Positions 19,966 through 41,030 of a stretch of 63,502 bases of DNA are shown one piece after another. Where the stretch lies: the NCBI GenBank assembly GCA_964523015.1, contig CAZFXN010000011.1, forward strand, positions 1-63,502. Direction: 5' to 3'. A program made the position numbers and the translations under genes. The first letter of the stretch is position 1; each line of letters opens with the position of its first letter. The notes beneath the pieces were generated by a model. The model was not told the origin of the DNA, searched no databases, and worked only from the letters and a program-made list of their open reading frames with translations. Origin of the DNA: an uncultured Bdellovibrionales bacterium. Lineage in GTDB: Bacteria > Bdellovibrionota_C > UBA2361 > J135.

Positions 19966-19992
19966 TTTGAAAATATAGCTCAAAGTTAAAAA

Positions 19993-20164: not shown

Positions 20165-21049
20165 ATGAGTCAGGAGAATCTTACCCAAGCAGAGATACTT
20201 ACCTCAAGGATATCAAAGGAATATCTGGCAGCAATTTTAATTTCTGATACTGCTTCCGCATCGAAAATTATTTTTGCTGGATTAGCTCAAGGTATCTCTA
20301 TTTTCGACATCTATATAAAGGTTATTTGCCAAGCTCAAAAAATGCTTGGAGTTCTTTGGCTAAAAAGTCAGATTTCCATAACCCAAGAACATCTAGCCAC
20401 TCAGGTATCGACTGCTATTATCTCTACACTCAGACAACAAGTTACTCCTAAAGCCCCACTTGGCTTTAAGGTATTGGTAGCAACCCCAAATTCTGAACCT
20501 CATATTTTTCCAGCCCAAGTAGTTTCTGATTTTTTTTATTTTGATGGGTGGGAGATTTTCTTCCCTGGTAACAACATTCCTGAACAGGATTTAGTTGAGT
20601 TTGTTAAACAGAACAAAATAGACATTGTATGTCTTTCTGTTTCAATAAAGCCAGGGAATAAATTTCAATCCTTTTTAGCAAATCTTAAAAAATTATCTCC
20701 AAAACCCAAAATCATGCTTGGAGGTGCGGCATCTGAACTATTCAGTGCTGATAAACATATTGATGCAATTGTAAGCTCCATAGATGAAGCAACAAAAGTT
20801 GCCCGATCTCTTTTAGGAAAGGAGGCTCAAGAATCTTCTTTGAACCAATATTTAAAGTCCTTGGGAGAAAGAATATATATTAAAAGAAAATCTAGGTCAC
20901 TGAATCAGCAAAAGTTAGCGGAATTAGCTGGCCTTGATCGTGCCTACTTAAGCTCAGTAGAAAATGGAAAACAAAATATTAGCCTGGCAGCTGTAAACAG
21001 GATTGCTCAGGCTTTAGGTTTGACTATTGAGGAACTACTAGAGAAATAA
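20165..21049 (+). CDS. Cobalamin-binding (CarH/LitR-type) protein with C-terminal XRE helix-turn-helix
   Basis: W-x9-EH (WLKSQISITQEH), ExH (SEPHIFP), B12 Rossmann fold (GNNIP, CLSVS, MLGG); C-terminal LNQQKLAELAGLDRAYLSSVENGKQNISL. Confidence 0.88.
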   Translation: MSQENLTQAEILTSRISKEYLAAILISDTASASKIIFAGLAQGISIFDIYIKVICQAQKMLGVLWLKSQISITQEHLATQVSTAIISTLRQQVTPKAPLGFKVLVATPNSEPHIFPAQVVSDFFYFDGWEIFFPGNNIPEQDLVEFVKQNKIDIVCLSVSIKPGNKFQSFLANLKKLSPKPKIMLGGAASELFSADKHIDAIVSSIDEATKVARSLLGKEAQESSLNQYLKSLGERIYIKRKSRSLNQQKLAELAGLDRAYLSSVENGKQNISLAAVNRIAQALGLTIEELLEK

Positions 21050-24400: not shown

Positions 24401-25186
24401 TGGTCGCCCTGCCTCCTCAAGTGGATTTGGATTTCCGATCTCAGGAAATTGAGATTTGATGAATAGACCGCCACGCTCAAATATTCTAAAATTATCTCCT
24501 GGTGATAGCGTTTCCCACTGCGGTAATGGCACAAGCTTATTAAGGGCGCCGCGACCTTTAACTCGATCATTGATTGACTCATCTATTACAGCTTGAGGTA
24601 TTCCATCCCGAGTATAACTCTCTCCAAGGATATAATTTTTGTACGGTAAGATATTATTATTATAAGAGGCTCCACCAAAGAACATTGCTGAAGTAGTCAT
24701 TAAACTTCTCTTTACCGCTACTACTGTTTCAGCATGACAACCACCACACGTCTCTGGAGCGACTCTAAGATCTCCAGGATTCATAAATTTAACAAATTCG
24801 GGTGATTCCTTTAGCAAATTGGAATAGGAGCGTTTTGGATTAGCTGATGTGGGCCAATTCTCAGGATGTCGGGGCGAAACGTGGGCTAGTTTTTTTGTAT
24901 GATTATATTCCGGTCCATGTAGTGTTGTATTATTAGGTAATCTTACTTTTGGATCGCCTCCATGACAGTGGGCACACCCTATTTGAACTGCTGGATTTGT
25001 ATGCATCGATGGGGCGTCAGTTTTAGTATGACAATCAAAACAGCCAATACTTCCCTCTTTTACTTCCTCTTCTGTAAGCCCTGGTTTTATTGGATCAATT
25101 AGCGGATCCGCTGACGCAGAAATGGCTGCGACAAAAAGAGTAAACAGGGAAATATTTAGCAATCTTAAAATCATCCTTAAAATCAT
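21500..25186 (-). CDS. Secreted multiheme cytochrome c with C-terminal LVIVD-repeat propeller
   Basis: Signal peptide; 9 CxxCH plus one SxxCH; repeats YVATGDSGLEAV, YLYTTAGTAGFRVYDV, YAYVSGGKEGLVIIDI, AYLADGINGFKILQL. Confidence 0.88.
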   Translation of the reverse strand: MILRMILRLLNISLFTLFVAAISASADPLIDPIKPGLTEEEVKEGSIGCFDCHTKTDAPSMHTNPAVQIGCAHCHGGDPKVRLPNNTTLHGPEYNHTKKLAHVSPRHPENWPTSANPKRSYSNLLKESPEFVKFMNPGDLRVAPETCGGCHAETVVAVKRSLMTTSAMFFGGASYNNNILPYKNYILGESYTRDGIPQAVIDESINDRVKGRGALNKLVPLPQWETLSPGDNFRIFERGGLFIKSQFPEIGNPNPLEEAGRPDVRQSNRGPGTGSRSSVPVLNIHKTRLNDPHLSLMGTNDHPGDYRNSGCTSCHVIYGNDRDERHSGPYAKFGHEGKTQTKDPTIPKDEEGHPISHVFTRAIPTSQCMICHMHQPNMFVNTYLGYTMWDYESDAPHMWPEKQKYPTAEERFQSLSHNPEDAASRGNWTDIEFLKKVSELNPKLDNTQFADYHGHGWNFRAIFKRDRKGNLLDKKGTKVTDTDPQKFKKAVHLSDIHLDKGMHSVDCHFGQDNHGDGHIYGEVAQSVEITCEDCHGTVKERSTLLTSGPASPDGGNDLTLARTPFGKPRFEWHGSTLIQRSNLYKDKEWKVKQVRDIVDAKSPWYNEKAAKAKLVKTLGPSDTKPGYASVSNVLNTESGKSLLAHDDTKVACFTCHSSWVTSCAGCHLPIEANWKQKSKHYDGKETRNWASYNPQVARDDMFQIGRHGPAKDGKIVPIRSSSALVLSSTDINRQKIYVQQPPTAASGHSSQAFAPHFPHTVRTTETKQCADCHVSKKNDNNAIMAQLQLFGTNFVNFIGYHAYVATGDSGLEAVQVTEWDEPQAVIGSYLHRYAYPDFFKAHQDKKLELTTSHPHHGAGGVTNTIQLRGEYLYTTAGTAGFRVYDVANIANKGFSERIVTSPVSPLGQDTHVSSKNATSFALPTTMPIAPFRDQLPENLETKMHPIYHYAVIVDSVEGLILVNVDTLADFEPRNNFLKRALTWNEDGILNGATHIELGGTNAFVSTPESIVILDLDNPLSPKVRAEIPFNNPTASRIQFRYLFVTDKDGFHSVDITDIDKPIKVKGSLVSLSDARNIYLARTYAYVSGGKEGLVIIDIEKADKPKLYMKYNDDGTINDLSDVKVATTNASLFAYLADGINGFKILQLTDPERVPTYYGFSPEVKPKLIALKHTHGPALAISKGLDRDRAVDETGHQVSVFGRIGSRPLNLTEMQSLYLNKDKKLFTVK

Positions 25187-25189
25187 CTC

Positions 25190-26950
25190 TTAGTATTCAA
25201 GTATTAGATTAGTAAAAAGTGTATATAAGGTTTCGTCACCATAAAGATTTTTTACTCCATCTTTTGGTTCTAGTGCTGAGGCACCAAATCGAAACTGAAT
25301 ATTATTATTTAAAAATGGTCGGTAAAGTATTCCAGCAGAAAAATCAAAACCTATATCTCTATTAAAGGATCCGTCCTGCCTTAATGCGTTAAGAGTTTCT
25401 ACCTGATCAAATTGCAGGTAGCTAATGTTGGTAATAAGCTTAAGCTGAGGCAGAACTTCAAAATCAGCACCAACATTTAAAAGTCTTATCCCAGGGTTTA
25501 CATAATTAGATTGCCCCTCCTCTTTACCAGCTCTTAAATTTGGCAAGAAACTGTTACGATTTACTAAAAAAACTTCACCCCCTCCGATAAGAGGGAGAGC
25601 TTGTCTTTGCCAATAAGAGAGATCCCCACCAGCAAAGTTAGGATTATCAACAATAGCATCAAACCCAGTCGCTCGATCATCATATGGATCACTATCACCA
25701 GATGCCCATAACGCAGAAGCTCTCAGTCTTATCCAATCAATATCGTATGAGATCTCTTGGGCAAACATAAAGGCACTAACGTTAACCTTCTGAGCAGCAA
25801 TTGGATTATGACTCTCTGACCCGGTTACATAATATGCGGCACTAGTTGTGTTAATCCTATCAATATGGCCATCTGCAGTCAGACCAAAATAAGTTGAATA
25901 AATATTCTTCTCTCTCTCATCCCCTATCGAAGCTGGTCTTCTTAAAAATCCATTTTCATCATAGTGAAAACCGTAATCTCCAGCAGTGTCCTCCCTATAG
26001 ATTACGCTTCCAGAAATTTGATGACCATGTACTGGCCAGTCTTGACGGTATAGATTTCCAACGAAAACTTTCTCATGTCTTGAATCAAATGTGTTAATTC
26101 CAGAATTAGTATCTTTATCTAACCTTGAAAAGGCAGCTAAATTATATTGCCAAAGATTATTTTCGGAATTTCCAAAAAGACGTAAACCAGGGGCTGAATC
26201 AGTAAAAACAAATCCTCTAAAATCACTTTGAAACTGCTGAATACCAACCCGTGATGAGATAAAATCATACTGAGGTGAGATATTCGCCAGGTGAACGTCA
26301 GCAAATAGATCTAAAAATCCAACATGCTCATCATCACGATCTTTTCCTTCAGATGGATCAATATTTAGGACACCGGTCTCCTCAGATTCAACATGATTAA
26401 AATTAATTACTGGAATTGCTCTTAGTTCAAATTCAGGTGGCTTAAATGTCGTATTCCCTCTAATCAAGGAAAAAGAAGGAATAATATTTTGAACTGCAAT
26501 ACTTAGTGAACCATTCCCGATTGTATTTAAACGGCCTGATTCAGATGTTGAAGCCACACCCACTGGCAAAGCTATTTTAGATCTCTCAAACATAGTGTCT
26601 GAGATAACTCCCATCTCTAAAAACCACTCATGCCCAGGGGATCCGAAAACCGGAATGTCTCCCTTTAATACATTTTGGTTATATGGATCGTACCATTTAC
26701 CTGTATAAAACTGCCTCCATCGATCTGGCACCGGCACAAATTCAGAAGCTGAGGAATTAATATCTGGCACGGACTCATATATAAATGGTCGAAAGATTGT
26801 TTTATCTTCACTGCCAGGACGCTGACGTATCTCTGAATCAGTTTCTGCTTTTAAAAAAGTAGTAAGGTATAAAGATAGGACTATAGTCGCAATCGTAATA
26901 GATTTTAAGGGCTTTAAGGAGTTCAGTAAGATTATGAACTTAAAATTCAT
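25190..26950 (-). CDS. Putative outer-membrane beta-barrel protein
   Basis: Signal peptide, alternating amphipathic strands rich in aromatics, C-terminal ...FTNLILEY (BAM-type signal). Confidence 0.7.
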   Translation of the reverse strand: MNFKFIILLNSLKPLKSITIATIVLSLYLTTFLKAETDSEIRQRPGSEDKTIFRPFIYESVPDINSSASEFVPVPDRWRQFYTGKWYDPYNQNVLKGDIPVFGSPGHEWFLEMGVISDTMFERSKIALPVGVASTSESGRLNTIGNGSLSIAVQNIIPSFSLIRGNTTFKPPEFELRAIPVINFNHVESEETGVLNIDPSEGKDRDDEHVGFLDLFADVHLANISPQYDFISSRVGIQQFQSDFRGFVFTDSAPGLRLFGNSENNLWQYNLAAFSRLDKDTNSGINTFDSRHEKVFVGNLYRQDWPVHGHQISGSVIYREDTAGDYGFHYDENGFLRRPASIGDEREKNIYSTYFGLTADGHIDRINTTSAAYYVTGSESHNPIAAQKVNVSAFMFAQEISYDIDWIRLRASALWASGDSDPYDDRATGFDAIVDNPNFAGGDLSYWQRQALPLIGGGEVFLVNRNSFLPNLRAGKEEGQSNYVNPGIRLLNVGADFEVLPQLKLITNISYLQFDQVETLNALRQDGSFNRDIGFDFSAGILYRPFLNNNIQFRFGASALEPKDGVKNLYGDETLYTLFTNLILEY

Positions 26951-26953
26951 TAA

Positions 26954-28942
26954 CTATAATCCCTCACATACTCTTTGCTCATTAGACCCTCTAAAAGGAC
27001 CCTCTGGACAATTAACATACCGTAATCGAGTATTTGGTAGCGGTCCAAGCACAGTATCTGACCGTATATCTTTAGGAGCATTAAATCCTATCACTGGATC
27101 ACCCAAAGCATTTTGCCCAATTGCGTCAAGCCCCAAACGACTTGGGCTATAAAATGCAACTAAATCATCTTGATCAACACCATCTCCACTAATACCGATT
27201 GCACCAATCAACGTACCATTTCTATATAGTGGAACAGAGCCTGGGAAGATCTGAATTCCATTTCGTAATCGCCCTCTAAAGACTGAAGTATCTGTACAAC
27301 TATCAGGAACAGCACTTGGTGGGTTTTGTGGAATTCCAAGCGGCTGAACAGTTCTTTGAAAAACCAAATCAAGCTCTAATCCAGTATTAAATGGACTAAA
27401 TGTTCGCCCAGACAGCACACCTGGAAATGGTAAAGAAAAAGGGCCAGGAGCAGATCCATCAATGCCATCTAAGAAAAATGGCCGAGCTATATTTCCGATA
27501 GCTCTATTTGAAAATGCTATGGTTCCGTTAAAAACTTCACGACCAAAAAAAGCGCGAGCTAGACCAGCATAATCACTAAACTCTCCGACTCCATTTCGTG
27601 CCCGAGCTGCATCTAGGGATATTGCAGCATCAGGGGAGCTAAAAAATGCTGCAGTACGGGCTTTTTGAAGGGCCACATCGATACCAAATACAGGAGCATC
27701 ATTACTTCTAACCATTCCAAGAGGTGACCCCTCAGTATCAACGATAAAGATAGTTACCTCAGCATCAAAATCAAGTGGTTGTCTGATAGCTGCTCTAGTT
27801 CTTGATGCTGTCAAAAGTGCAGAATTTAAAAGAGCGTCAACTTCTAAAGAGGTAAGCTCCAATCCGCCTAAAAGCGATTTACCGCTCCTTGTTGGAAATC
27901 TTGGTGTTCCAGCTTCGTCAGTCAAAATAGCGCCCCTTAATCCTGCTCGCTCTATTTTTAAAATACCTGAACTGGCAGTACCAAACGTAGCACCAGCTTT
28001 AATGTTTCCATCAAAATAAAAAGGAATCTTTATTAAATTAGTCGTTACAATTACTGGCAGAACTTCAGGTAATGGATCCAAATCATCATAACTAAGATCC
28101 ACTGTTCTTAAAGATTTTCCTAGCGCAAAAATCCTATCCCCTGTTCTCTCTGAGGGTATTTCAAAACCATTTCGCCCGGCGATTAATGCGATTCTTTCTT
28201 CAAGGGAATTATCAGTATCAATAATGTTTCGATCTAATGTGTATGCTCCATCAAGCTCTACACCTATACCACCTACTACATCTCCAAATTTATAAAGGGG
28301 AATTCCTCCAGGATCAGCACTAAGCCCAAGTGGTAAAGATCTAGGTCCTACCAATCTAGGAGCTTTAAATTTAGAACCTGCTGAGATACCTCCAAGTAGA
28401 TCAGGGTTAATTGTTGTTACGTCTCCACAGATCAGTTGTGAGAACTGAACTCCAAATAGTGGTCCTCCAGGCTGATTTCCTTCTCCTGGGTTAAAGTGCT
28501 CCTGAATAATCTGACTGGCTGTTCGAGTTGAAAAAGCATTTCCTTGTGAACTTAAATAAGCTCCTGTTCCAGCTTTTGATATTGCAGCGATAACTGAAGG
28601 AACGCCTACACCTTCAAGTCCACCTACTGCGCCAATTTGACCATTGATTGTGGTAATTGCAGTAGCTCCAGGCATGGCATACACAGCTAATACATTACCT
28701 ACCCTATCTACGATTGAAAATGTTGCGGCGACTCCTAACTGCTCGGCTGCGGCGATGCCTTGTTGTAATACTTTGGTGACATCTTCTGTTGTAAGGTTAA
28801 AATTAGTACAGGTACCAGCACACCCATAATTAGCTCCACTAAATCCGGAGGCTCGACCATACTGTCCACCGTCACTACCACCACCTCCACAACCAAATAT
28901 ACAAACAGTGGACGCAATCAATACAACTAATGACTTAAACAT
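26954..28942 (-). CDS. Lipoprotein with two GlcG/HbpS (heme-degrading-like) domains
   Basis: Lipobox IFGC + Gly linker; SIVDRVGNVL..AISKAGTG..PGGIPLYKFGDVVGGIGV and FIVDTEG..ALQKARTA..FPGSVPLYRNGTLIGAIGISGDGVDQDD. Confidence 0.82.
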   Translation of the reverse strand: MFKSLVVLIASTVCIFGCGGGGSDGGQYGRASGFSGANYGCAGTCTNFNLTTEDVTKVLQQGIAAAEQLGVAATFSIVDRVGNVLAVYAMPGATAITTINGQIGAVGGLEGVGVPSVIAAISKAGTGAYLSSQGNAFSTRTASQIIQEHFNPGEGNQPGGPLFGVQFSQLICGDVTTINPDLLGGISAGSKFKAPRLVGPRSLPLGLSADPGGIPLYKFGDVVGGIGVELDGAYTLDRNIIDTDNSLEERIALIAGRNGFEIPSERTGDRIFALGKSLRTVDLSYDDLDPLPEVLPVIVTTNLIKIPFYFDGNIKAGATFGTASSGILKIERAGLRGAILTDEAGTPRFPTRSGKSLLGGLELTSLEVDALLNSALLTASRTRAAIRQPLDFDAEVTIFIVDTEGSPLGMVRSNDAPVFGIDVALQKARTAAFFSSPDAAISLDAARARNGVGEFSDYAGLARAFFGREVFNGTIAFSNRAIGNIARPFFLDGIDGSAPGPFSLPFPGVLSGRTFSPFNTGLELDLVFQRTVQPLGIPQNPPSAVPDSCTDTSVFRGRLRNGIQIFPGSVPLYRNGTLIGAIGISGDGVDQDDLVAFYSPSRLGLDAIGQNALGDPVIGFNAPKDIRSDTVLGPLPNTRLRYVNCPEGPFRGSNEQRVCEGL

Positions 28943-30652
28943 CTATTTCCTTTTATTAAGCGACACAACTATATCTTTAAGAGATCTCTTTTCATTATGA
29001 TTCATAGTCAAAGATTCATGATATGAGTGGCACATAACGCAATTTGATTTAATAAAACCGCTACTAGCTGTAGCACTATGACACTCCTGACACGTTTCTA
29101 TCCCAGGGAGAAACAGATCTTTTGTGCTAGTTGATTCGGCAACTGAATGAGTAGCTAAATTATGACAAGATTCACACTGCACCTCATCATGTGCACCATG
29201 ACTAAAAGTAGAGGCCGGGAACCATTTGCTTGGGATCTCCGGTGTCAATAATTTAAACCGACTCTGGGTTCCATCAAAATTAACATCCTTATTTTCGATA
29301 CTAACTTCCACACTAACATGGCATAATTGACAAGCAGTTTTAGTAAAAAGTTGCTCTTCGGCACTTCTTGATTCTTTTGAGATGTTTGATTTAGTAAAAG
29401 TAACAACTTTGCTCGTCTCTCTTTCTACTGTAAATCCAGGTTTTCTCCTTACATTAAACTCTTCATCCTCTTTGGGACTACTTCCACCACCAAGAGCTAA
29501 TTTTGCATACTCTGCATATAGGTAACTATAAACAAGGTTAGGATCGCCATGTGGTACTTCTTTGTTAGGAAGTCGATCATCAAATGACAGTGGATGGCAA
29601 CTCTTACAATCTCTCTCAAAGGAGATTGGCTCAATTACTTTTCGATCTTTCCCTAATCTATGACAATCAGAACAGTTAAGATCCACTTCACCCTCTGGTC
29701 CGCGAATTCCTTTTTCAAGATGAACCTTGTGGTTAAGTTTAATTGGAGTTGGATCAGTCAGAGATTCCCTATCCTCAAGACTAATCCGGGCGAATTCTTT
29801 CCCCTCAGAATCTTTCCGTATTGAGGCTTTAAATTGAGGATGACTATCAAAGGAATCGATATTTTCTAATTTAGTTTCAGGATTAATATTAGTAATATCT
29901 CCGTGGCAACTACTACAAAGTGCAGAAGCCTGATCTACTAAATGATGATTACCATTATGTTCAGTGTGGCAAGTCGCGCAACTTATATCTAAATCCTCAT
30001 TGGCGGAAATTAATCTTGGCAACGTTGGTGAGTGATCAGTCATAACGTGACAACTCATACATTTTGAATCGGGTACAGCATGGAAAGCTTTTTCATGACA
30101 GGCGCTACAATCCTGCTCAATCATTTTATGATTATTTGAGATCGGCCCACTACTCCAAGAACCTTTATTAACTCCAATTACTGGTAGGATAAAAAATAGA
30201 ATAGCTACTATGCCTGCAAATCCTAAGCAGAGATTTCTAAGTGTTGGGATATGACTTTCTATAGAGAGAGCTGTTACTAATTTGTTGGCCTGCTCCTCCG
30301 GATCAACATCCAAATCATCCCTTCTCTCCTCAGTAAGGTGTATCTCGTTATTTTCTATCTCAACTGCGATTGAGATATCGGAGAGCTTAAGAATGTCTCC
30401 GGTTTTAAGCCTGGCATTAACAATCTTAGCATTATTAAGGAAAACGCCACTACTGCTATCAAGATCATAAACATATGGAACATTGTCAGATACCTGAATA
30501 CTGACATGTTCTAATGAGACAAGTTTACTTTCAAGCAGGATAGCTGAGGCACCACCTCTTCCAATCACAATTGGGAAAGTATCAAACTGACTCGATTTGA
30601 TCTCAGTCTGACCATTCTTTTTTATCGTATGTATTGTATATTTTAGCTTCAT
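28943..30652 (-). CDS. FHA domain - TM - decaheme cytochrome c3-like protein
   Basis: FHA motifs IGRG, VSLEH, DLDSSSGVFLN; one TM helix; 10 CxxCH motifs. Confidence 0.88.
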   Translation of the reverse strand: MKLKYTIHTIKKNGQTEIKSSQFDTFPIVIGRGGASAILLESKLVSLEHVSIQVSDNVPYVYDLDSSSGVFLNNAKIVNARLKTGDILKLSDISIAVEIENNEIHLTEERRDDLDVDPEEQANKLVTALSIESHIPTLRNLCLGFAGIVAILFFILPVIGVNKGSWSSGPISNNHKMIEQDCSACHEKAFHAVPDSKCMSCHVMTDHSPTLPRLISANEDLDISCATCHTEHNGNHHLVDQASALCSSCHGDITNINPETKLENIDSFDSHPQFKASIRKDSEGKEFARISLEDRESLTDPTPIKLNHKVHLEKGIRGPEGEVDLNCSDCHRLGKDRKVIEPISFERDCKSCHPLSFDDRLPNKEVPHGDPNLVYSYLYAEYAKLALGGGSSPKEDEEFNVRRKPGFTVERETSKVVTFTKSNISKESRSAEEQLFTKTACQLCHVSVEVSIENKDVNFDGTQSRFKLLTPEIPSKWFPASTFSHGAHDEVQCESCHNLATHSVAESTSTKDLFLPGIETCQECHSATASSGFIKSNCVMCHSYHESLTMNHNEKRSLKDIVVSLNKRK

Positions 30653-30658
30653 TCCAAT

Positions 30659-31477
30659 CTAACGATAATAAAAGATTGAAATTATATGGATAACCATAAC
30701 AGCAAATGCTGCTACAGCTATCGGGACATGCAGATAAAGCCAAAGCTTTAACCAAAAATGTACTCGGGTTTCCTCGATAATTAAATTTGCCAATTCATAT
30801 TTGCGATTAATAAGCCCAATCAGGTTTACCCCTTCATCTTTCTCAGAGGGATTAAGATCTGAGACAAATGCGGCAACATCCCTAGGTACAGGTGCAGACA
30901 TCATTGATTGACATAAAGCACGCTTTAAAGTCGGTTGAAAAGTAAAATCAAACATCCTAGTCAGATCAATAAATTTTTTCGACTTTTGAATAGTTAAGGC
31001 ATCTATAGATGATGAAATTATATCAAGTTGCTGTAACAGTTCTTTTAGATTTCCTTTCCCCCTGTGCGACCCTACTTCAGGGGCTAACGAGAAATAGTTT
31101 ATTGCTCCCCAAATTCCAGTAAAGATAGCTAATACCATTAATATGTAAGCTAAGGTGTGAACATTGGCCCCAAAACTAAATCCCGAATGAAGAGGAACTA
31201 GAAATAATAAAAAGATACCGAGCCAGACATGAACAGCCAACGCTCCTTTTAGTGTTGTCTTACTTGAAAAAAAACTTCTCTTTCTTATGCCAAACCACAT
31301 AAGAACACACATTCCAAGTGCAGCAATTATTCCATAACTGTACCCTAACCAGGTCCCACCATTTGGAGCTCCTATAGGATCATGAAGTGCATAGATAATA
31401 AGCACTACTATCAGTGCACCCAGATGAATCCAGAGCCAGAGAAAATTTTTGTAATTTAAAATTGTCTCCTGTCTCAC
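30659..31477 (-). CDS. Polytopic membrane protein with His residues in TM helices (putative b-type cytochrome)
   Basis: Several TM helices; AVHVWLG, VPLHSG, WLYLHVP, VIHII; translationally coupled to the upstream oxidoreductase. Confidence 0.65.
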   Translation of the reverse strand: MRQETILNYKNFLWLWIHLGALIVVLIIYALHDPIGAPNGGTWLGYSYGIIAALGMCVLMWFGIRKRSFFSSKTTLKGALAVHVWLGIFLLFLVPLHSGFSFGANVHTLAYILMVLAIFTGIWGAINYFSLAPEVGSHRGKGNLKELLQQLDIISSSIDALTIQKSKKFIDLTRMFDFTFQPTLKRALCQSMMSAPVPRDVAAFVSDLNPSEKDEGVNLIGLINRKYELANLIIEETRVHFWLKLWLYLHVPIAVAAFAVMVIHIISIFYYR

Positions 31478-33837
31478 CCAAGCCTCCCTTGCTTAGCTGA
31501 GATTATTTCAAGCATTTTTCTTGGATTAACTCTCATGGCCGCACCAGTTGGACAAGAGCGGACACAAGCCGGACCTCCCGGCAAAGTTGAGCACATATCA
31601 CACTTTCCAGCCTTAGCAGGCCCCTTGCTTTTTGCGGCGTCTTTTTTACCTAAGCCTAAAAGAGAAAGTAACGAGAAAGGCTCCGCTGGTTTCGAATAAA
31701 CCATCTGAATAACACCGTATGGGCAATTAGAAACACAATTACCACACCCGATGCAGCTGTCTTGAATTATCACCTCTCCATCAGGTCTTCTAACCAGAGC
31801 ATCTGGTGGGCAATCAACCATGCAAAGTGGATTTTCACAGTGACGACATGAGATCGGAATCTGAATAGCCGCAAAACTCTTCCCACCTTTTCTATCTAAC
31901 CTGGTATATCCTCCATGCGTTGCAGCACATGCTTTTTCGCAATTGTCACATCCTACACAGAGATCTGAATCAATCAAAAGAACATTGTCAGCGTCACTAA
32001 CCCCTTGACCAAGCATAAAATCAAGAAGGGTCCCTACCTTTTCATTTTGACTAGCAGTTATGTTTTCTATCTCTCTCTCTTTAATTAAAGAGAGGATTCT
32101 TTTTTTAGTATTTAGATTTCGATCTATAACAAAACGGAAATCGGCCTTATCTATTACGATGGTTTCACAAGCGACGGCTGCAGTTACTGTAGCGTTACGT
32201 GGTGTAACCTCATCCTTTATAAGTGCCATCTCTCCAACATAATTACCGGCGGCCAGATAAGTTTGAGTAACCTCAATTCCTTTTTTGTTTTTTCTAGAAA
32301 TTTTTACTGAACCTTTTCGGATTACATACAACTGCTCCCCAGGATCTCCTTCTCGAAATAGGACTTCCCCCTTTTTAAAGAATTTCGTTTTGGCCGCAGT
32401 AACTATATCTGCCAAGTAATGAACCTCAACATCTGGAAAGATCGATGTAGCTAAGGCATTACTCATAAATTTTAAATCAATAGCTCGTTTAATACTGTCT
32501 ACCGAGGCTATTAACTTAAGCATCTGCTTTCTTGGAGTCTCAAGGATCAAACCATCCTTAGAAGCAACAACAGTGGCAGTTCGACGCCTGCCAGATAGTA
32601 ATCCAATTTCTCCAAAAAAAGTTCCCTGCTCCATCTCAATGGTTTTATCGTTAGGTAATTGGATAAAAACAGATCCTGAAATGATATTGAAAAAAGTATC
32701 GGTATAATCATTTCGATCAAAAATAACCTGGCCTTTCTTCACCACATGTACTGTCGAATCAATGATTAACTCACGATATTGCGGCTCACTTAGATCTTTA
32801 AAGATCGGCAAATTTGCTGAGATCATCTGCAACGATTCACTAACCGGCCTTTCAAGGTGAGTTAATTTCTCATCAATTAAAATCTGATCAGCAGGTTCTA
32901 TCTCATTTCCTAAAATGTGCTCAATTACTTCATAGCCCTGATTGATCCCCTGCTTAATAAGTGGGTAGCCAATTAGAGATCCAACCAAATAGAGCCCCGG
33001 AATATTAGATTCATAATTTTTTGAAACGACAGGTACTGAGGTAATTTCTGCATTTGGAAAAACGATTCCGCAACTCTCTAAAAACTTACGAGGTGGAATT
33101 GCCCCTATTCGTGCAATTATTTGATCGCATGGTATTTCAACAAGTCCTTCGGTAGCAGAATTAATAAAGGCCTTTCCTGCCTCAACATGATCCATATTTG
33201 AGTTATAAAAACAGCGGATCTTCCCTGCTTCTATGGCTTTCATAATTAAACTTATGTTTCCATCCTTGGCTCGAGCAAAATCCTCGGTTCTATTAAGAAT
33301 AGAGACAATATTTTTTTCAGATAATGCGACCGCATTTTCTATAGCTGCATCACCTGCTCCTACTACTAAGATATGCTTATCAACAAAGGCGTCAGGATCT
33401 CTAAGAGTGTATCCAACATGAGGAAGATCCTCTCCTGGCACACCAAGTTTTCGTGGTGCCCCTTGTATTCCGACAGCCAAAATTACATTTTTGGCTGTAA
33501 TAGATTCCTCTCCAAACTTAATCTCAAAATGTTCTTCGGATTTTACGATTGACTTAACTTCAGCTTTTTTAAGATTAACGCCTAAGCTCTTTAAAGCCTC
33601 ATTCCAACTATCTAAGATTGATTCGCGTGTGCCAGCTTCGAAAGCAACGTGAGCCCTAAGAGGTAGTTTGCCTGGCTCAGCCATGACATGCTTTCTAAGC
33701 TGGTATTCAAATATGGTATTTCCAACTTCGGCTTTCTCAAAAAGGATATGAGAAAGTTTATGATTTGCTGCATTAGTGGCAGCTCCTAATCCACCTGGGC
33801 CAGCGCCAATAATTGCAATATCAAAATGTTCAGGCAT
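31474..33837 (-). CDS. FAD/NAD(P)H oxidoreductase fused to two cNMP-binding domains and a 4x[4Fe-4S] ferredoxin domain
   Basis: GAGPGG and GAGDAA Rossmann motifs; FFGEIGLLSGRRRTATV and YVGEMAL..PRNATV; CVGCDNCEKAC, CRHCENPLCMVDCP, CIGCGNCVSNCP, CDMC..ACVRSCP. Confidence 0.92.
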   Translation of the reverse strand: MPEHFDIAIIGAGPGGLGAATNAANHKLSHILFEKAEVGNTIFEYQLRKHVMAEPGKLPLRAHVAFEAGTRESILDSWNEALKSLGVNLKKAEVKSIVKSEEHFEIKFGEESITAKNVILAVGIQGAPRKLGVPGEDLPHVGYTLRDPDAFVDKHILVVGAGDAAIENAVALSEKNIVSILNRTEDFARAKDGNISLIMKAIEAGKIRCFYNSNMDHVEAGKAFINSATEGLVEIPCDQIIARIGAIPPRKFLESCGIVFPNAEITSVPVVSKNYESNIPGLYLVGSLIGYPLIKQGINQGYEVIEHILGNEIEPADQILIDEKLTHLERPVSESLQMISANLPIFKDLSEPQYRELIIDSTVHVVKKGQVIFDRNDYTDTFFNIISGSVFIQLPNDKTIEMEQGTFFGEIGLLSGRRRTATVVASKDGLILETPRKQMLKLIASVDSIKRAIDLKFMSNALATSIFPDVEVHYLADIVTAAKTKFFKKGEVLFREGDPGEQLYVIRKGSVKISRKNKKGIEVTQTYLAAGNYVGEMALIKDEVTPRNATVTAAVACETIVIDKADFRFVIDRNLNTKKRILSLIKEREIENITASQNEKVGTLLDFMLGQGVSDADNVLLIDSDLCVGCDNCEKACAATHGGYTRLDRKGGKSFAAIQIPISCRHCENPLCMVDCPPDALVRRPDGEVIIQDSCIGCGNCVSNCPYGVIQMVYSKPAEPFSLLSLLGLGKKDAAKSKGPAKAGKCDMCSTLPGGPACVRSCPTGAAMRVNPRKMLEIISAKQGRLG

Positions 33838-34027
33838 AGAGCTGTCTGTACGAAGTGTTCGTTATGTAAACGTTTTTTGGAGGAACTATATGTGAGAGGG
33901 AAAATCGAAGCAATGAAAAGCTCTTTAATGACATGAACATAGGGGAATCTGGTCAATAATTTCAACCGCTGTTTTAATTGTAAAAATCTTACTGACAACC
34001 TCATTGAAGTTCATTAAAGAGAGAGTG

Positions 34028-35317
34028 ATGCATAATCGAATTTTCTATTTATTCGCAATAATACTTCTTAGTACTCTTTCAGTAGGCACTACTTCATTAG
34101 CTGCTCCTGATACTCATAAGTATATGGGGGCTGCGACGTGTGCCTCATCAAACTGCCATGGATCTGGATCTCCAAGAAGTGGATCCAATATACTTCAAGA
34201 CGAGTATGTCACCTGGTCTAAAAAAGACGCTCACTCTAAAGCATGGCGCGTATTAACAAATGAAGATTCTAAAAAAATCGGATTTAATTTAGGAATTAAA
34301 GATCCTTCAAAAGATCCACTCTGTCTTAAATGCCACTCGACATATGTTAGTGAAAAGTTACATGGGGACAAGTTTGCAATTGAAGATGGTGTATCTTGTG
34401 AAAACTGTCATGGTCCAGCTGAAAAATGGCTCTCCTCTCATGCTAGCTCAAAAACTAGTCATAGCGATAATATAGATCGTGGCATGACTGATTTAGTTTC
34501 CGTTGAATCCCGTGCAAAATTTTGTCTTAGCTGTCATTTCGGTAACGATGATAAGTTTGTTGATCATCGGATGATTGGAGCAGGTCATCCTCGACTCAGT
34601 TTTGAGTTAGATACTTTTAGTATGACTCAACCAAGACACTGGGATTACGATCAGGATTATGTAAAACGAAAAGGGGAATATGATCCAATTAAAGCTTGGC
34701 TAATTGGGCAGATTGAGATCTCAATTGCATCAGTAAAAGTACTATCCTCTGAAGCAAGATCCAGAAAAGGAATCTGGCCTGAACTTTCACTCTTTAACTG
34801 TTATGCTTGCCATCATTCTTTAGAGGAAGGCCAATGGAGAAAGCGTGAATATAAAAATGGCCCTGGGGAATTAAAGTTAAACGTATCTTCTCTTTTAGTT
34901 ATTAAAGATGCTTTAGCAGTTTTAGAGCCGTCTCTTTATAAAAGTCTGGAGCAGAACTTAGCTTTACTTCATGAACAATATAAAGAAGGAAAAGCTTCAA
35001 ATCTTCTCTCTACAATGGAAACTTTACTTACAGATCAAGCTTACCATGTGATAAGAACTGCTCAAATTTCAGAGACCATCCGATCGAAACTTCTTAAAAT
35101 GATAGTTAACATAGCTGCGACAACTCCCCATTTTCAGTATGAAGAAGCCGAGCAAGTTCTAATGGGGATCTCTGCTATCCTTTCAAGCGATAAAGAGACC
35201 TGGAAAAAACTTTCAAAAGAAATTGACCAAATGTATTTAGCATTAAAAACCCCGGAAGAGTTTAGCGCAGAAGACTTTACAGCTGCCTCAAAAAAATTAC
35301 AGCAAAAACTGCTTTGA
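34028..35317 (+). CDS. Periplasmic multiheme cytochrome c554-like protein
   Basis: Signal peptide; CASSNCH (Cx4CH), CLKCH, GVSCENCHGP, CLSCH, CYACH; ATG 34028 chosen as start. Confidence 0.85.
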   Translation: MHNRIFYLFAIILLSTLSVGTTSLAAPDTHKYMGAATCASSNCHGSGSPRSGSNILQDEYVTWSKKDAHSKAWRVLTNEDSKKIGFNLGIKDPSKDPLCLKCHSTYVSEKLHGDKFAIEDGVSCENCHGPAEKWLSSHASSKTSHSDNIDRGMTDLVSVESRAKFCLSCHFGNDDKFVDHRMIGAGHPRLSFELDTFSMTQPRHWDYDQDYVKRKGEYDPIKAWLIGQIEISIASVKVLSSEARSRKGIWPELSLFNCYACHHSLEEGQWRKREYKNGPGELKLNVSSLLVIKDALAVLEPSLYKSLEQNLALLHEQYKEGKASNLLSTMETLLTDQAYHVIRTAQISETIRSKLLKMIVNIAATTPHFQYEEAEQVLMGISAILSSDKETWKKLSKEIDQMYLALKTPEEFSAEDFTAASKKLQQKLL

Positions 35318-35911
35318 ATTAATTAATGCCCTTAAGCTTTTAATATTTTCCTGTTTCTGCTCCTCTCTCAATCTATTTGCAGGCCCAGTATGCCACTGAT
35401 GTGCCTCAAGAAGATTAAGGGAATGTTCTAAAAACATCTCTGCCGAAGGTAGGTTTAGCTCTTTTAGAACTAATTTTCCCTTATCAAAAAAATCTTTCCG
35501 CCCTAAATTACTAACATCAGCGTCAAGAAGATAGCCGGAGAGACGTGTAGTTGGAATTTGTTTAAATCCACCTTCTGCTACCTGCATCTTTGTATCAAGG
35601 ATCATTGTCTTAACTAGATCAACCTCTTCAACGGAATATCCACCTGCTATGCTCATTGCCTCCTCAGCCATCTTAGCTCCAAGATCTTCATTGTCTCTAC
35701 GCTGAGATAAAAACCCAGCATCATGATATGCAGCAGCAACAACTAAAAGCTCTATCTCACGATCATTTAAATTGTCCCCCTTTGCATAACAGAGAACTTC
35801 TTCTATCACATCGAGTGTATGATCATAGTTATGGTAGTAGAGATCATTAGGTAGATCTCTCTTCAGCTTATCTAGAATTGTAGTGACTAAAGGTAATTGC
35901 TTAAAGTTCAC
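35297..35911 (-). CDS. HD-domain phosphohydrolase (putative cyclic-nucleotide phosphodiesterase)
   Basis: YYHNYDHTLDV, AAYHDAGF, LLDADV. Confidence 0.8.
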   Translation of the reverse strand: MNFKQLPLVTTILDKLKRDLPNDLYYHNYDHTLDVIEEVLCYAKGDNLNDREIELLVVAAAYHDAGFLSQRRDNEDLGAKMAEEAMSIAGGYSVEEVDLVKTMILDTKMQVAEGGFKQIPTTRLSGYLLDADVSNLGRKDFFDKGKLVLKELNLPSAEMFLEHSLNLLEAHQWHTGPANRLREEQKQENIKSLRALINSKQFLL

Positions 35912-36153: not shown

Positions 36154-39100
36154 ATGAAAGTACTTATTTATCAATTAATTCAAAAAGATATGAGTTCAAA
36201 AATAAATTATCTAATTGTTTCTCTTTTTCTTACCTCGCTAACCTTAGCAGATATTGCATTGGCTGAGAGCATAGCCAAACTTTTCTCTGCTCAAGGTGTT
36301 GTCGAAATCAAAAATCCCAACGCTGCCACCTGGAGTAAACTTTCAGAGGGATCCGCAATTAACAGTGGGGACACGGTAAGAACACTAAGTGAGGGAAAAG
36401 CAGCGATCCTATTTACTGATGGTGGATTGGTTAGATTGAGTGAAAATTCATCTATGACGTTCGAGCCAACCAAGGCTGCTTCAAATATAGAGAAAAATGT
36501 TGCTATGGATTCTGGAAGTGCTTTCTTTTTTAGTCGAGAGCCAAAGCGTTTTCCAAATGTAATTACACCGTCAGTGAGCGCCGCGGTTAGAGGGACTGAA
36601 TTTGCGGTTGAAGTTACAAGCTCTCAAACAAAAGTCTCAGTTCTAGATGGTGCGGTAGAGTGTAAGAACTCCTATGGCCAAGTAACACTCTCTCAAAATG
36701 AAGTAGCTACGACAAAGAAAGGAAGTGCTCCTCAAAAATCTTTACTCATTAATCCAATCGATGCTGTTCAATGGGCAATTAATATACCAATTATTGCTGA
36801 TAAACCTTCCTTAGCTGAGCTTAGAAAAACTAGTACAGGGGGAGAGATTATTGAGGTATCAAAACTCTTATCTAAAGGAAAGTTAAAGGACGCGGAAAGT
36901 CATCTCAGAAAATTGCATCAAAGTGTTAAGCAGAAAAGTACCTCTTTTAATGGGCAATCTCTCTCTTATATCTACGCTTATGATGCGATCTTACATCTAG
37001 TCAGAAACGACAAAGCAAAAGCACGAGAACTCTCTACACTAGCTATAAGTTCTAACTCACTTAATACTACAGCCTTACTTAGTGCTGCATACGTTGATCA
37101 GGCTTCCTTTAATTTACCTGGTGCTAAATCAAAAATAGAAAAGCTGTTACTAATCAATCCAAGTAATCCAGTAGCTAGAGCAAAGTTAGCTGAGCTTAAT
37201 TTATCTCTAGGATCCATTGATGAAGCAAAACGAGTAATAAATGAAAATAACAACTCCCAACTTTCTAACGATCTTACTCATTCAGTTCTAGGGTTCATAG
37301 CTCTAATAGAGTACGAACCGGCAAAAGCAATTATAGAATTTAATAGGGCTATTGAACTAAACCCTAATTCAGCACTCCCTGTACTTGGTCGTGGTTTAGC
37401 AAAGATAAATCAAGGATTCCTTCAAGACGGAAGAGAGGACATTGAAGTAGCGGCAGCCCTTGAGCCAAATGTGGCAATTTATAGAAGCTACTTAGGAAAA
37501 GCTTTCTTTGAAGAGGATAGAGAAAATTTATCTCTAAATGAATATGCAAGAGCTATAGCATTAGACCCAAACGATCCTACTCCACACCTATATAGAGCCT
37601 ATACTTACTTATCGCAAAATAATGTCATCGGGGCACTTAGTGACGTTGAGGATTCAATTTCTAAAAACGACAACCGTGCTGTTTATAGATCTAAATTATA
37701 TTTAGATGAAGATAGCGCAGTACGAAGCGCCGGACTGGCTGAAGTTTTTAACTCAATAGGTTTCGTAAAAGCTGCTCAGATTGAAGCAATCAAATCAATT
37801 AATAAAGATTACGGCAACTATAGCGCTCACAAGTTACTCTCTGAAAGTTACAATACTATTCAAACTTCAGATGCATTGTTGTCTGAGAAAGCGATCACTA
37901 ATCTACTATCCCCACTTAGTTTTAATTTATATTCAAATCCTGGAAGCGATGCTTCTTTAAATGAGTACAATGCTCTCTTTGAGAGACCAAATAGAAAAGT
38001 TGATTTAAGATATCGTGGATCAACTCATGAAGATCTCTCAGTGCCTGCTGCATTCCTAACCGGTCGTACTGAGAAGTTTGGATATTTGCTAGGAGTAGAA
38101 TCAGGCAATGCTAACGGTAGCAAAGATAATAATTATTTAAGAGATCAGAGGCTCAGGGCTGCTGGACAATATCAGTTAACTAGTAAAGATCGAATTATTA
38201 CCGAGGGCAGATATCAAGCCTTTCACTCAGTTCAAGATAATTCTGGATTGGATGAAGTTATCTCTGAAAACTATGAACTTGATTTAGGATATCATCATAA
38301 ATTTGGTCCAGGCTCAGGATTTATTTCCCAAGTTACTTACCGTGACGCCCGCAATCATTTTGGATCTTATGCGGAACGACCGATGGCGCTAGATATTATT
38401 TCTGATGCTGAGATATTTTCAACTGAAGAGATCGTTGCTTTAAATGAACTGGCCAATGAAGATGTTCGAGATCTGCGATTTAGCGCCCAATATTATAAGA
38501 ATACTGAATTTTTAACTATTGTAACTGGAGCAGAATCCTATTCAGCTAAGCCAAAACGAAGAGAAAGTTCTACTATATTAGATGATGAATTTGATCTTTT
38601 TCCTGGGATTGATAGACAACTTAGATCTGAATCAACCCCTGATCTGACATCTCAGGACATATACCTTTATCCGACTCTACACCTAACAAAAATGTTAGAT
38701 CTTAATTTGGGAGTTTCCTATACAAACATAGAGGTAGAGGATCGAGTAGTTTTACCTTATCTTGATACCACGACAGATCAATCCCGATGGAACCCAAAAG
38801 TTGGCACCACTGTTTATCTTACCCCTGATCTAACTTGGAGAAGTGCCTACTTTGAAGGATTAAGAAAATCAGCACTTGAAGATACAGGAACACTTGAACC
38901 GACGCTAGTTGGTGGATTTAATCAGATATTCAATGATTTCTCTGGGGCACGTTCACGTACATACGCAACTGGATTGGATTACAAAATCGCAAAGAAAACG
39001 TATATGGGAGTTGAAAGATCTCACAGAGATGTTATCGAAGCTGATAATCTAGCTCGCACCACATATAGCTTAGATTTTGATTCCTTAACTCAAAGTACAA

Positions 39101-39552
39101 CGACCACACTTGATGATAAATTTGAAGATCATTTTAATCAAGACTTTCTCTCTGGATATCTGTATCAGGTTTTTTCTAAGCGCTGGGTAGGTACAGTAGA
39201 TTACGATTGGTTTAAATCTGAATTAACCGATCCAGATGTTTATCAAGACCTTAAATTACACAGATCTCGCTTTACATTAAGGTATTTTGATCCATCTGGA
39301 TGGTTTAGCTTTGCTACGGCCACTTGGCGAGAGCAAAACCGAGATGGTAGTTTTTTTGTTGAAGATGGCAATTCGCAATTTTGGATCGTTGATACTGGTG
39401 TTGGATACAGATTTCCTAGCCGTAAGGGTAGTATAGTTTTTAAATGTAATAACATCTTTGATAAACAGTTTGATTACGATCAATCTCCTGGCTTTGAGGA
39501 ATTCGTAGCGGCTGATATTGCTGGTGAAGTCTTGTTGTCGTTTAATTTTTAA
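36154..39552 (+). CDS. FecR - TPR - outer-membrane beta-barrel receptor (NsrA-like)
   Basis: FecR motifs GDTVRT, VRLSENS, TPSVSAAVRGTEF, VSVLDGAV; TPR array (ALDPNDPTPHLY); barrel ending in CNNIFDK...SFNF. Confidence 0.85.
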   Translation: MKVLIYQLIQKDMSSKINYLIVSLFLTSLTLADIALAESIAKLFSAQGVVEIKNPNAATWSKLSEGSAINSGDTVRTLSEGKAAILFTDGGLVRLSENSSMTFEPTKAASNIEKNVAMDSGSAFFFSREPKRFPNVITPSVSAAVRGTEFAVEVTSSQTKVSVLDGAVECKNSYGQVTLSQNEVATTKKGSAPQKSLLINPIDAVQWAINIPIIADKPSLAELRKTSTGGEIIEVSKLLSKGKLKDAESHLRKLHQSVKQKSTSFNGQSLSYIYAYDAILHLVRNDKAKARELSTLAISSNSLNTTALLSAAYVDQASFNLPGAKSKIEKLLLINPSNPVARAKLAELNLSLGSIDEAKRVINENNNSQLSNDLTHSVLGFIALIEYEPAKAIIEFNRAIELNPNSALPVLGRGLAKINQGFLQDGREDIEVAAALEPNVAIYRSYLGKAFFEEDRENLSLNEYARAIALDPNDPTPHLYRAYTYLSQNNVIGALSDVEDSISKNDNRAVYRSKLYLDEDSAVRSAGLAEVFNSIGFVKAAQIEAIKSINKDYGNYSAHKLLSESYNTIQTSDALLSEKAITNLLSPLSFNLYSNPGSDASLNEYNALFERPNRKVDLRYRGSTHEDLSVPAAFLTGRTEKFGYLLGVESGNANGSKDNNYLRDQRLRAAGQYQLTSKDRIITEGRYQAFHSVQDNSGLDEVISENYELDLGYHHKFGPGSGFISQVTYRDARNHFGSYAERPMALDIISDAEIFSTEEIVALNELANEDVRDLRFSAQYYKNTEFLTIVTGAESYSAKPKRRESSTILDDEFDLFPGIDRQLRSESTPDLTSQDIYLYPTLHLTKMLDLNLGVSYTNIEVEDRVVLPYLDTTTDQSRWNPKVGTTVYLTPDLTWRSAYFEGLRKSALEDTGTLEPTLVGGFNQIFNDFSGARSRTYATGLDYKIAKKTYMGVERSHRDVIEADNLARTTYSLDFDSLTQSTTTTLDDKFEDHFNQDFLSGYLYQVFSKRWVGTVDYDWFKSELTDPDVYQDLKLHRSRFTLRYFDPSGWFSFATATWREQNRDGSFFVEDGNSQFWIVDTGVGYRFPSRKGSIVFKCNNIFDKQFDYDQSPGFEEFVAADIAGEVLLSFNF

Positions 39553-40990: not shown

Positions 40991-41030
40991 GAAGTTTTCA
41001 TTTCTCCATATCTATGATAGACTTACTGGT

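Follow-up and report, generated by a model that had tools for sequence, protein, structure and literature searches.

We analyzed a 63,502-nucleotide (nt) stretch of DNA from an uncultured Bdellovibrionales bacterium (assembly GCA_964523015.1, contig CAZFXN010000011.1, positions 1 to 63,502), hereafter the window. It encodes FCF787, a flavo-iron-sulfur protein of 787 amino acids (aa) with two cyclic nucleotide-binding (CNB) domains. We propose, with a probability of about one in two, that FCF787 is a cyclic AMP (cAMP)-regulated entry module of a transmembrane electron-export chain, leading from NAD(P)H over flavin adenine dinucleotide (FAD) to four [4Fe-4S] clusters. The electron chain is in our judgment the probable part of this proposal, while gating by a nucleotide is slightly favored. 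An earlier note on this DNA had put forward a cyclic-nucleotide effector that is a redox enzyme. For FCF787, this idea gains indirect support because 83 of 100 relatives have both phosphate-binding triads intact, the gene has linked cyclases in two phyla and the genome holds few cyclases and CNB proteins. The same note treated FCF787 as a stand-alone enzyme, a view that had to be given up: the protein appears as the cytoplasmic head of a conserved operon for membrane and multihaem cytochrome proteins, and this membership determines what its electrons are for.

The open reading frame (ORF) of FCF787 occupies 31474..33837 on the minus strand, stop included, exactly as first delimited, and is documented by the ORF list, by Pfam, NCBIfam and Protein Data Bank (PDB) sequence matches and by an AF2 model. 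The same three sets of matches bear out the domain order proposed earlier, with a flavin module, two CNB domains and a ferredoxin. An FAD/NAD(P)H module of thioredoxin reductase (TrxR)/YpdA fold (aa 1-315; 32893..33837, minus strand) was defined by Pfam, NCBIfam, fold search and an alignment of 100 relatives; residues 5-300 show the pyridine-nucleotide-disulfide-oxidoreductase fold (Pyr_redox_3, residues 9-286, E = 1.1e-32; Pyr_redox_2, E = 3e-28), and in the PDB YpdA covers residues 7-288. CNB-A (aa 346-465; 32443..32802) and CNB-B (aa 466-595; 32053..32442), also on the minus strand, were placed by Pfam and cassette alignment. Together they give a cNMP_binding match in two stretches (E = 1.7e-40), with PF00027 at 137.3 bits passing its cut-off of 27.5. 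PDB sequence matches pair residues 316-590 as a tandem CNB unit with the regulatory subunits of the cyclic GMP (cGMP)- and cAMP-dependent protein kinases PKG and PKA (4rz7, E = 3.3e-27 over residues 316-560; 3of1, E = 8.8e-22; 3j4q, residues 336-590).

The C-terminal part is a HycB/HydN-type ferredoxin module (aa 612-787; 31477..32004, minus strand), recognized by Pfam, NCBIfam and alignments. Fer4_11 and Fer4_7 match residues 660-766 (E = 1e-10 to 3e-11; Fer4_11 at 41.8 bits with a cut-off of 26.2), and residues 620-778 match HycB3 (7qv7, E = 1.1e-18) and 7z0s (E = 3.1e-17) in the PDB. The module has the four CxxCxxCxxxC-type motifs and 16 cysteines of four-cluster ferredoxins (PF13247 and relatives): C627/630/633/637, C664/667/672/676, C695/698/701/705 and C746/749/758/762. 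From the earlier label of a DmsB/NrfC-type 16-cysteine ferredoxin, the cysteine count stands, being invariant in all 100 aligned relatives and in 34 of 34 diverse ones; the matches to HydN/DmsB/DsrO/NrfC-like equivalogs that were scored in NCBIfam stay far below cut-off (HydN 73 versus 260, DmsB 58.9 versus 214, DsrO 62.4 versus 200), as does AegA (86 versus 1003), positions 4-157 of which match residues 619-782. The AF2 model of FCF787, built from the 100-relative alignment, is confident overall (pLDDT 89.0, pTM 0.80). Foldseek matched its flavin module alone, to YpdA, TrxR and TrxR-type ferredoxin-NAD(P)+ reductases (FNRs), with 7a7b (YpdA) at a TM-score of 0.78 and 2zbw, 3lzw and 6gar also among the closest folds; no solved chain in this search covered the whole architecture. 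Read directly, the N-terminal sequence holds no Tat or other signal peptide, so FCF787 with its ferredoxin module is predicted to be cytoplasmic.

The architecture is widespread. A word-indexed protein library yielded 3927 relatives among 7999 scored candidates; the best 120 of these are all 749-801 aa long, share the same Pfam set and bear generic names, for example, 'cyclic nucleotide-binding domain-containing protein'. In a 50%-representative library, 951 proteins matched at E ≤ 1e-30, including dozens of full-length cluster representatives with identities down to 31%. At least 586 of 599 candidate stretches in one-genome-per-species contigs encode an FCF787 relative of ~780 aa, and the recurrence of one architecture across so many genomes excludes chance as its explanation. 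Within the phylum of the window, the gene occurs in 73 of 124 genomes and 32 of 64 genera. Besides the cysteines, the 100-relative alignment leaves invariant the FAD motif GxGxxG (G11/G13/G16), the NAD(P) motif (G160/G162/D163/E167) and G409 of CNB-A, and R183 is conserved. The segment linking the flavin module to CNB-A is conserved like the flavin module (mean column conservation of 0.62 versus 0.60).

A tight operon of six genes on the minus strand begins with FCF787, whose TGA stop shares bases with the GTG start of mem272, the gene that follows (GTGA). A Shine-Dalgarno-like AAGGGAGG lies 6 nt upstream, and the gaps between the following genes are 6, 0, 3 and 3 nt. Weak additional evidence is a terminator-like hairpin past the final gene, with promoter-like sites in the spacer toward the divergent gene upstream. 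Downstream of FCF787 lie mem272, a protein with five transmembrane (TM) helices and putative dihaem cytochrome b (30659..31477; hydrophobicity, 62-member alignment and model); a decahaem cytochrome c with ten CxxCH motifs, an FHA domain and one TM helix at aa 141-159 (28943..30652); a 662-aa lipoprotein-like protein with three HbpS-like (PF03928) stretches (26954..28942); g586, a protein of 586 aa without a Pfam family that, as a lead only, may be an outer-membrane barrel (25190..26950); and g1228, a nonahaem cytochrome c with nine CxxCH motifs and a C-terminal LVIVD/beta-propeller part (21500..25186). The assignments after mem272 stem from Pfam and, for the cytochromes, motif counts, except for g586, where they stem from look-alike clusters. 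Divergently on the plus strand, 34004..35317 encodes a tetrahaem cytochrome c of the Cytochrome_C554 family (Pfam and motif count; four CxxCH and one Cx4CH).

For locus studies, we used the best 80 of the at least 586 FCF-bearing stretches; these belong to Bdellovibrionota, Gamma-, Alpha- and Betaproteobacteria and Nitrospina (Nitrospinota), and many are short contigs. By tblastn, homologues of mem272 and of the decahaem protein were each detected in 67 loci, of the HbpS-like protein in 54, of g586 in 48, of g1228 in 43 and of the tetrahaem protein in 22. The mem272 homologue begins within 400 nt of the FCF gene in 62 of the 73 loci with at least 1.2 kb downstream. Fuller context was counted in 34 loci with at least 9 kb on each side: 22 have the mem272, decahaem, HbpS-like, barrel and g1228 homologues all downstream, six betaproteobacterial loci show the set in permuted order, one has no g1228 within range and five contain the mem272-decahaem core alone, with or without the tetrahaem gene. 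For the permuted type, a mem272 homologue was located in one of six genomes (G004), where it leads the cluster on the same strand, just beyond the flank of that genome's locus, L053. Decahaem homologues carry exactly ten CxxCH motifs in 49 of 60 ORFs. The best-conserved neighbor is g1228 (41-76% identity), with ten motifs in 12 of 13 homologous ORFs and nine in the copy of the window; by sequence it has no PDB relative (best E = 0.43), and its match to the model of Geobacter ExtM, a cytochrome from a selenite/tellurite reduction operon, is a short stretch at 75 bits versus a cut-off of 800. Look-alikes of g586 fall into unnamed clusters, with the alginate-export barrel family as a distant lead.

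The membrane crossing is tentatively assigned to mem272, for which Pfam gives no family at E ≤ 0.01. Five hydrophobic helices were recognized in its sequence, its model is confident (pLDDT 90.9) and five histidines are invariant in 62 of 62 homologues: H83, H97, H107, H250 and H264. H83 and H97 lie on helix 3 and H250 and H264 on helix 5, the two histidines of each H-x13-H pair being 14 residues apart. By the positive-inside rule, one histidine of each pair is predicted near the cytoplasmic face and the other near the periplasmic face, which we read as the geometry that two stacked bis-His b haems require. In a permissive Pfam scan of the 62 members, 60 weakly matched Ni_hydr_CYTB, the prokaryotic cytochrome b561 family (best E = 2.2e-6), 21 DUF4405 and 11 Ferric_reduct. 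We, therefore, regard mem272 as a putative distant dihaem cytochrome b.

Literature searches for earlier work on the architecture returned, for the cluster, a single 2024 preprint (bioRxiv 10.1101/2023.11.21.568154), along with a Sinorhizobium meliloti cyclase paper discussed below. The accessible text of the preprint names a ptdABCDEFG cluster, calls its function 'completely unknown', leaves roles in metal reduction and in the nitrogen cycle both open and describes D-E-F-G as a tetrahaem protein, a CNB/FeS protein, a ferric-reductase-like membrane protein and a decahaem protein. The window has the same four neighbors side by side, with the tetrahaem gene, FCF787, mem272 and the decahaem gene in the D-E-F-G layout, while its outer module (HbpS-like, g586 and g1228) differs from PtdA/B/C as described there. 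We take FCF787 to belong to the PtdE family, by description and layout rather than by a published accession. For PtdE, that text contains no protein analysis, counts two clusters, where we count four, and leaves the FAD module unmentioned. As far as these sources go, the architecture is already catalogued under generic names and noted once in passing in print. A further variant occurs in an alphaproteobacterial metagenome-assembled genome (MAG; locus L022), where the FCF-mem-decahaem core, with an FCF protein 49% identical to FCF787, stands beside a tetrahaem protein, a family-less 536-aa protein and a pentahaem protein with a weak match to Cytochrom_C552 (NrfA family).

Evidence for nucleotide control begins with the cassettes. 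As noted earlier for both CNB domains, the GE...R phosphate-binding cassettes are intact: FFGEIGLLSGRRRT at residue 407 (G409-E410...R419-T420-A421) and YVGEMAL...PRN at residue 533 (G535-E536...R547-N548-A549), which provide the triads G409-E410-R419 and G535-E536-R547. Among the 100 relatives, the Gly-Glu-Arg triad is intact in 88 for CNB-A and in 85 for CNB-B. A candidate source of the ligand, a CHASE2-class III cyclase with a Lys/Thr pair (43074..45041, plus strand; Pfam and cyclase alignment), lies 9.2 kb from FCF787. Between them is a gene for a 1132-aa FecR-TPR protein (36154..39552, plus strand; Pfam), a proposed part of a sensor module. In the assembly (2.85 Mb, 93.5% complete), we found two cyclase genes, both CHASE2-type, and by our rough arithmetic one of two would lie this close by chance about once in 80 cases. 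The genome encodes three CNB proteins, of which the two besides FCF787 are CNB regulators with a Crp-type helix-turn-helix (HTH).

A profile search placed a cyclase within 10 kb of the FCF gene in 15 of the 80 loci, in two phyla. In one gammaproteobacterial clade, ten of the 12 loci whose upstream flank reaches 5 kb or more have one, in the order cyclase, TPR/SlipAM-like protein, FecR-domain protein and FCF on one strand; two further loci have a GAF-PAS cyclase instead of the CHASE2 type. In Bdellovibrionota, four of six loci with full flanks contain a cyclase, and its positions and orientations differ. Our own FecR profile count (three loci) was discarded, as it missed FecR domains that Pfam found in gammaproteobacterial upstream ORFs. 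Class III cyclases also occur elsewhere in the genome in all five other carrier genomes checked, with 3-14 each. The Lys/Thr specificity pair is present in all 17 linked cyclases: each has Thr at the second specificity position and, at the first, the Lys that distinguishes the engineered adenylate form (6fht) of the guanylate cyclase Cya2 from its parent (2w01), which has Glu there. This pair is characteristic of class IIIb adenylate cyclases. Because the linked cyclases carry this adenylate-type pair, cAMP is the likelier ligand of FCF787. We also attempted to choose between cAMP and cGMP from the cassettes. The residue following the cassette Arg is Ser/Thr in 71 of 100 relatives for CNB-A and in 67 for CNB-B, a feature common to PKG (Thr) and Escherichia coli CRP (Ser), and this approach was dropped as not discriminating.

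Several observations weigh against a cAMP-gated export chain. In 17 of the 100 relatives the triad is incomplete, being lost from both CNB domains in ten and from one in seven; these losses are confined to divergent representatives with 31-45% identity. Because those ten have neither triad, the CNB fold must also have a nucleotide-independent role, at least as judged from the alignment. No cyclase was found within 10 kb in Lysobacterales or in alpha- and betaproteobacterial loci, many of them with full 10-kb flanks. The adenylate rule for Lys/Thr is one that we presume, the Glu/Lys switch between 2w01 and 6fht being the part visible in our alignment. On the membrane side, mem272 of the window reaches 12.6 bits with Ni_hydr_CYTB, under the 30.1 cut-off, and Foldseek of its model against the PDB gave nothing at E ≤ 0.001. 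In VIA-align, the best wide hits were coiled coils and designed bundles (Z = 9.5), and dihaem proteins scored within helical-bundle noise (5oc0, Z = 7.7; 4o6y, 7.6; 6hcy, 7.6; 7ah0, 8.2). The dihaem assignment, thus, comes down to the histidine pattern and the sub-threshold Pfam matches.

Part of this evidence suits a constitutive oxidoreductase that feeds the same chain and whose CNB pair serves as a structural spacer or dimerization scaffold, either unresponsive to nucleotides or bound to another ligand. Such an enzyme would account for the ten relatives that have neither triad yet keep the full architecture, for the 65 of 80 loci with no cyclase within 10 kb and for the CNB domains being the least conserved modules (0.51-0.56, versus 0.76-0.79 for the FeS module). 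We nevertheless consider it unlikely: both triads are kept in 83 of the 100 relatives, whereas members of the CRP/FNR family that bind other ligands typically lack the cassette Arg; two phyla show linkage to a cyclase, and the gene orders differ; and the genome has very few other cyclic-nucleotide receptors.

The direction of flow must also be weighed. Electrons could run inward, from periplasmic or extracellular donors through the cytochromes to NAD(P)+ at the flavin, as a lithotrophic supply of reductant under regulation by the CNB pair. Both TrxR-type FNRs and [4Fe-4S] chains can work in either direction, the sequence itself does not settle which one applies and the roles left open in the accessible text of the ptd preprint (bioRxiv 10.1101/2023.11.21.568154) leave room for such a pathway. 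We judge it improbable, since inward flow across the dihaem protein would oppose the membrane potential and the cluster appears to have no energy-coupling subunit. In addition, the genome encodes a haem-copper oxidase and is that of an apparently ordinary aerobe, and only four of its 2773 ORFs of at least 100 aa contain three or more CxxCH motifs. Three of these four are in the FCF cluster, and the scarcity of multihaem ORFs, together with the oxidase, points to a self-contained accessory chain in an aerobe.

At its cytoplasmic end, the chain would start at a flavin module with the TrxR fold and the FAD and NAD(P)H motifs but no CxxC, as would be predicted for a TrxR-type FNR. The earlier statement that CxxC is missing at the TrxR position held in the alignment with S. 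aureus TrxR (4gcm), where 'vsyCavCdgaff' pairs with 'vgytlrdpdafv'. The active Cys of YpdA lies in a GGGPCG motif, and it is replaced by Gly in FCF787 ('GGGPCGL' in 7a7b versus 'GAGPGGL'). A stretch N-R-x-x-x-F-x-R-A-K resembles the HRRxxxR NADPH motif of TrxR in the alignment, so NADPH would be favored. That the protein is instead a cyclic-nucleotide-regulated thiol-disulfide reductase of the TrxR/YpdA kind, with the ferredoxin as an accessory, is very improbable: YpdA and TrxR are the best NCBIfam and fold matches of the N-terminal module, but YpdA (TIGR04018, ranked first) scores 153.4 bits versus a cut-off of 339.9 and TrxR (TIGR01292, ranked next) 86.2 versus 343, both redox-active sites are absent and no Cys is invariant or reaches 90% within residues 1-600 of the 100 relatives. 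With cysteines missing and scores low, membership of FCF787 in either family was rejected.

In the mechanism that we envisage for regulated export, NAD(P)H would reduce the FAD of the TrxR-fold module, which would act as a TrxR-type FNR rather than a disulfide reductase because it has no redox-active Cys. TrxR-type FNRs pass electrons from flavin to ferredoxin, and here the flavin would hand single electrons to the four [4Fe-4S] clusters of the HycB-type module. This FeS wire would dock on a cytoplasmic insert of mem272 (residues 135-245), and electrons would cross the membrane through the two b haems to the periplasmic decahaem cytochrome and from there reach the tetrahaem cytochrome and the outer module, comprising the HbpS-like lipoprotein, the putative barrel and the nonahaem propeller cytochrome. 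The CNB pair, which resembles that of the PKA regulatory subunit and would sit exactly between electron donor and wire, would bind the cyclic nucleotide and set whether the flavin module delivers electrons. Each cycle of a TrxR-fold enzyme depends on a large domain rotation, and the PKA regulatory subunit undergoes a large helix rearrangement (B/C helices) on ligand binding; either the rotation or a rearrangement of that type could couple cAMP occupancy to electron delivery. The earlier note had more specifically suggested that the nucleotide would alter the FAD-to-FeS distance. The ligand would most likely be cAMP from the linked CHASE2 cyclase, to which the FecR/TPR proteins would pass on a signal from the envelope. 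Such tight control would have a rationale because the chain presumably spends NAD(P)H without conserving energy, and this drain would be opened on demand only.

The decahaem protein has its FHA domain (residues 14-94) at its cytoplasmic end. Of 15 homologues sampled across phyla, 12 keep the domain; two others gave no Pfam match, and one ORF was mis-picked. Its presence on the cytochrome implies, as a sequence-based prediction, a phosphothreonine input to the same chain. We tentatively extend the proposal to an outside-in-outside loop, which we hold to be less probable than the gating itself. In it, the FecR/TPR relay would activate the CHASE2 cyclase and cAMP would switch on, post-translationally, an NADPH-oxidase-like export, with the FHA domain as a second, phosphothreonine input. 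The path would comprise FAD, four [4Fe-4S] clusters, two b haems, ten c haems and the outer-membrane cytochrome module.

Each part of the system has known counterparts. Like FCF787, the PKA/PKG regulatory subunits contain tandem CNB-A/CNB-B domains with canonical cassettes, whereas the partner to be regulated in FCF787 is fused on both sides, is a redox enzyme rather than a kinase and comes with no inhibitor sequence. TrxR-type FNRs and YpdA/Bdr share the two-Rossmann TrxR fold with FAD and NAD(P)H motifs and no CxxC; FCF787 differs from them in its fusion to CNB and ferredoxin modules, in having no YpdA Cys and in scoring below the family cut-offs. A four-cluster, 16-Cys module is also found in HycB/HydN and, joined to an NAD(P)H flavoprotein, in AegA, but in FCF787 it is C-terminal, the CNB pair separates the flavin and ferredoxin parts and the flavin module is TrxR-type, compared to what we take to be a GltD-type module in AegA. 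With NADPH oxidases, ferric-reductase-domain proteins and cytochrome b561 (CybB), the system would share the logic of NAD(P)H, flavin and two stacked bis-His b haems across the membrane. Here, however, the flavin is on a separate subunit, the four-cluster wire and CNB pair stand between, and the electrons would go to a decahaem cytochrome instead of directly to O2 or a metal. A regulatory precedent is known from S. meliloti, where the CHASE2 adenylate cyclases CyaD1/CyaD2/CyaK make cAMP and act with the regulator Clr, in a regulon that also includes envelope proteins with FecR domains and TPRs (PMC5498481). Clr, the cAMP receptor described there, is a CRP-type transcription factor, whereas the receptor in the FCF system would be a redox enzyme.

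The cyclic-nucleotide effectors known so far comprise kinases, channels, exchange factors and transcription factors, together with a small number of enzymes (acetyltransferases and phosphodiesterases, for instance). If our proposal is correct, electron flow set by cAMP in an oxidoreductase would be a new output class, FCF787 being the first such effector with electron transfer as its output, and the chain would be the first conduit of the extracellular electron transfer type to draw on NAD(P)H directly instead of on the quinone pool. Such an export chain, controlled by cAMP and supplied by NAD(P)H, would add a variant both to the cyclic-nucleotide effectors and to the porin-cytochrome-type conduits. 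The family is large, spanning about half the genera of the window's phylum, many Pseudomonadota and Nitrospinota (Nitrospina), and many aerobic bacteria would then own a switchable, NAD(P)H-spending route to an extracellular or periplasmic acceptor. This would be relevant to how metals and nitrogen are cycled in mats, sediments and oxygen-deficient waters, and bioelectrochemistry would gain a compact electron-export module under ligand control. The question is directly testable, since some carriers are in culture, Zavarzinia sp. CC-PAN008 among them.

Some members of the family depart from the common pattern. A Bdellovibrionota MAG (L004) has two FCF paralogues (P0032 and P0068) on one 3.26-Mb contig. 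At its locus, one FCF-mem-decahaem core without the HbpS/g586/g1228 module is flanked by two FecR-TPR-barrel genes and two CHASE2 cyclases; the FecR-TPR homologue there also matches a TonB-receptor-type barrel. Three genomes of the window's phylum (G351, G376 and G414) give full-length FCF matches with a single in-frame stop (TAG, TAG and TGA, respectively), which may reflect sequencing errors, pseudogenes or recoding. Split CNB-CNB-FeS forms of 446-480 aa (P0225, P0229, P0240 and P0260) are known as proteins alone. A search with P0260 matched 32 of 301 alphaproteobacterial genomes, none in a frame of that size: 18 matches were in frames of ~800-960 aa, 11 in frames of 558-601 aa and three were weak. 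In the 558-601 aa frames (G187, G266, G227, G022, G177, G196, G105, G269, G136, G268 and G181), only the CNB-B and FeS part of P0260 was matched, and these represent a further architecture with an N-terminal part of ~250 aa. Positions 28943-33837 of the window are listed in 12 DNA datasets, all microbial mat metagenomes, and in no RNA dataset.

Further genes flank the cluster in the window. A 204-aa HD-domain protein with a YHNxxH...HD motif (35297..35911, minus strand; Pfam and PDB), encoded between the tetrahaem and FecR-TPR genes and of uncertain membership in the system, gave nine PDB matches, all to PDE5 catalytic domains and aligned on that motif (E = 0.21-0.30, not significant), and a Pfam match to PDEase_I (E = 0.0023). 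It is conserved beside the cluster in two of the 80 loci (L001 and L013) and, as a weak lead, could be the cyclic-nucleotide phosphodiesterase of the system. Between the FecR-TPR gene and the CHASE2 cyclase, two adjacent genes (39578-42458, plus strand) encode proteins of 470 and 499 aa with LDL-receptor class B (YWTD) beta-propeller repeats, a pair found in one of the 80 loci. Directly past the operon terminator lies a gene for a B12-binding and HTH_3 fusion (20165-21049, plus strand) that resembles light- or cobalamin-dependent regulators, and beyond it a cluster encoding SDR, amine oxidase, DUF1365 and cyclopropane-fatty-acid-synthase proteins occupies 15937-19983.

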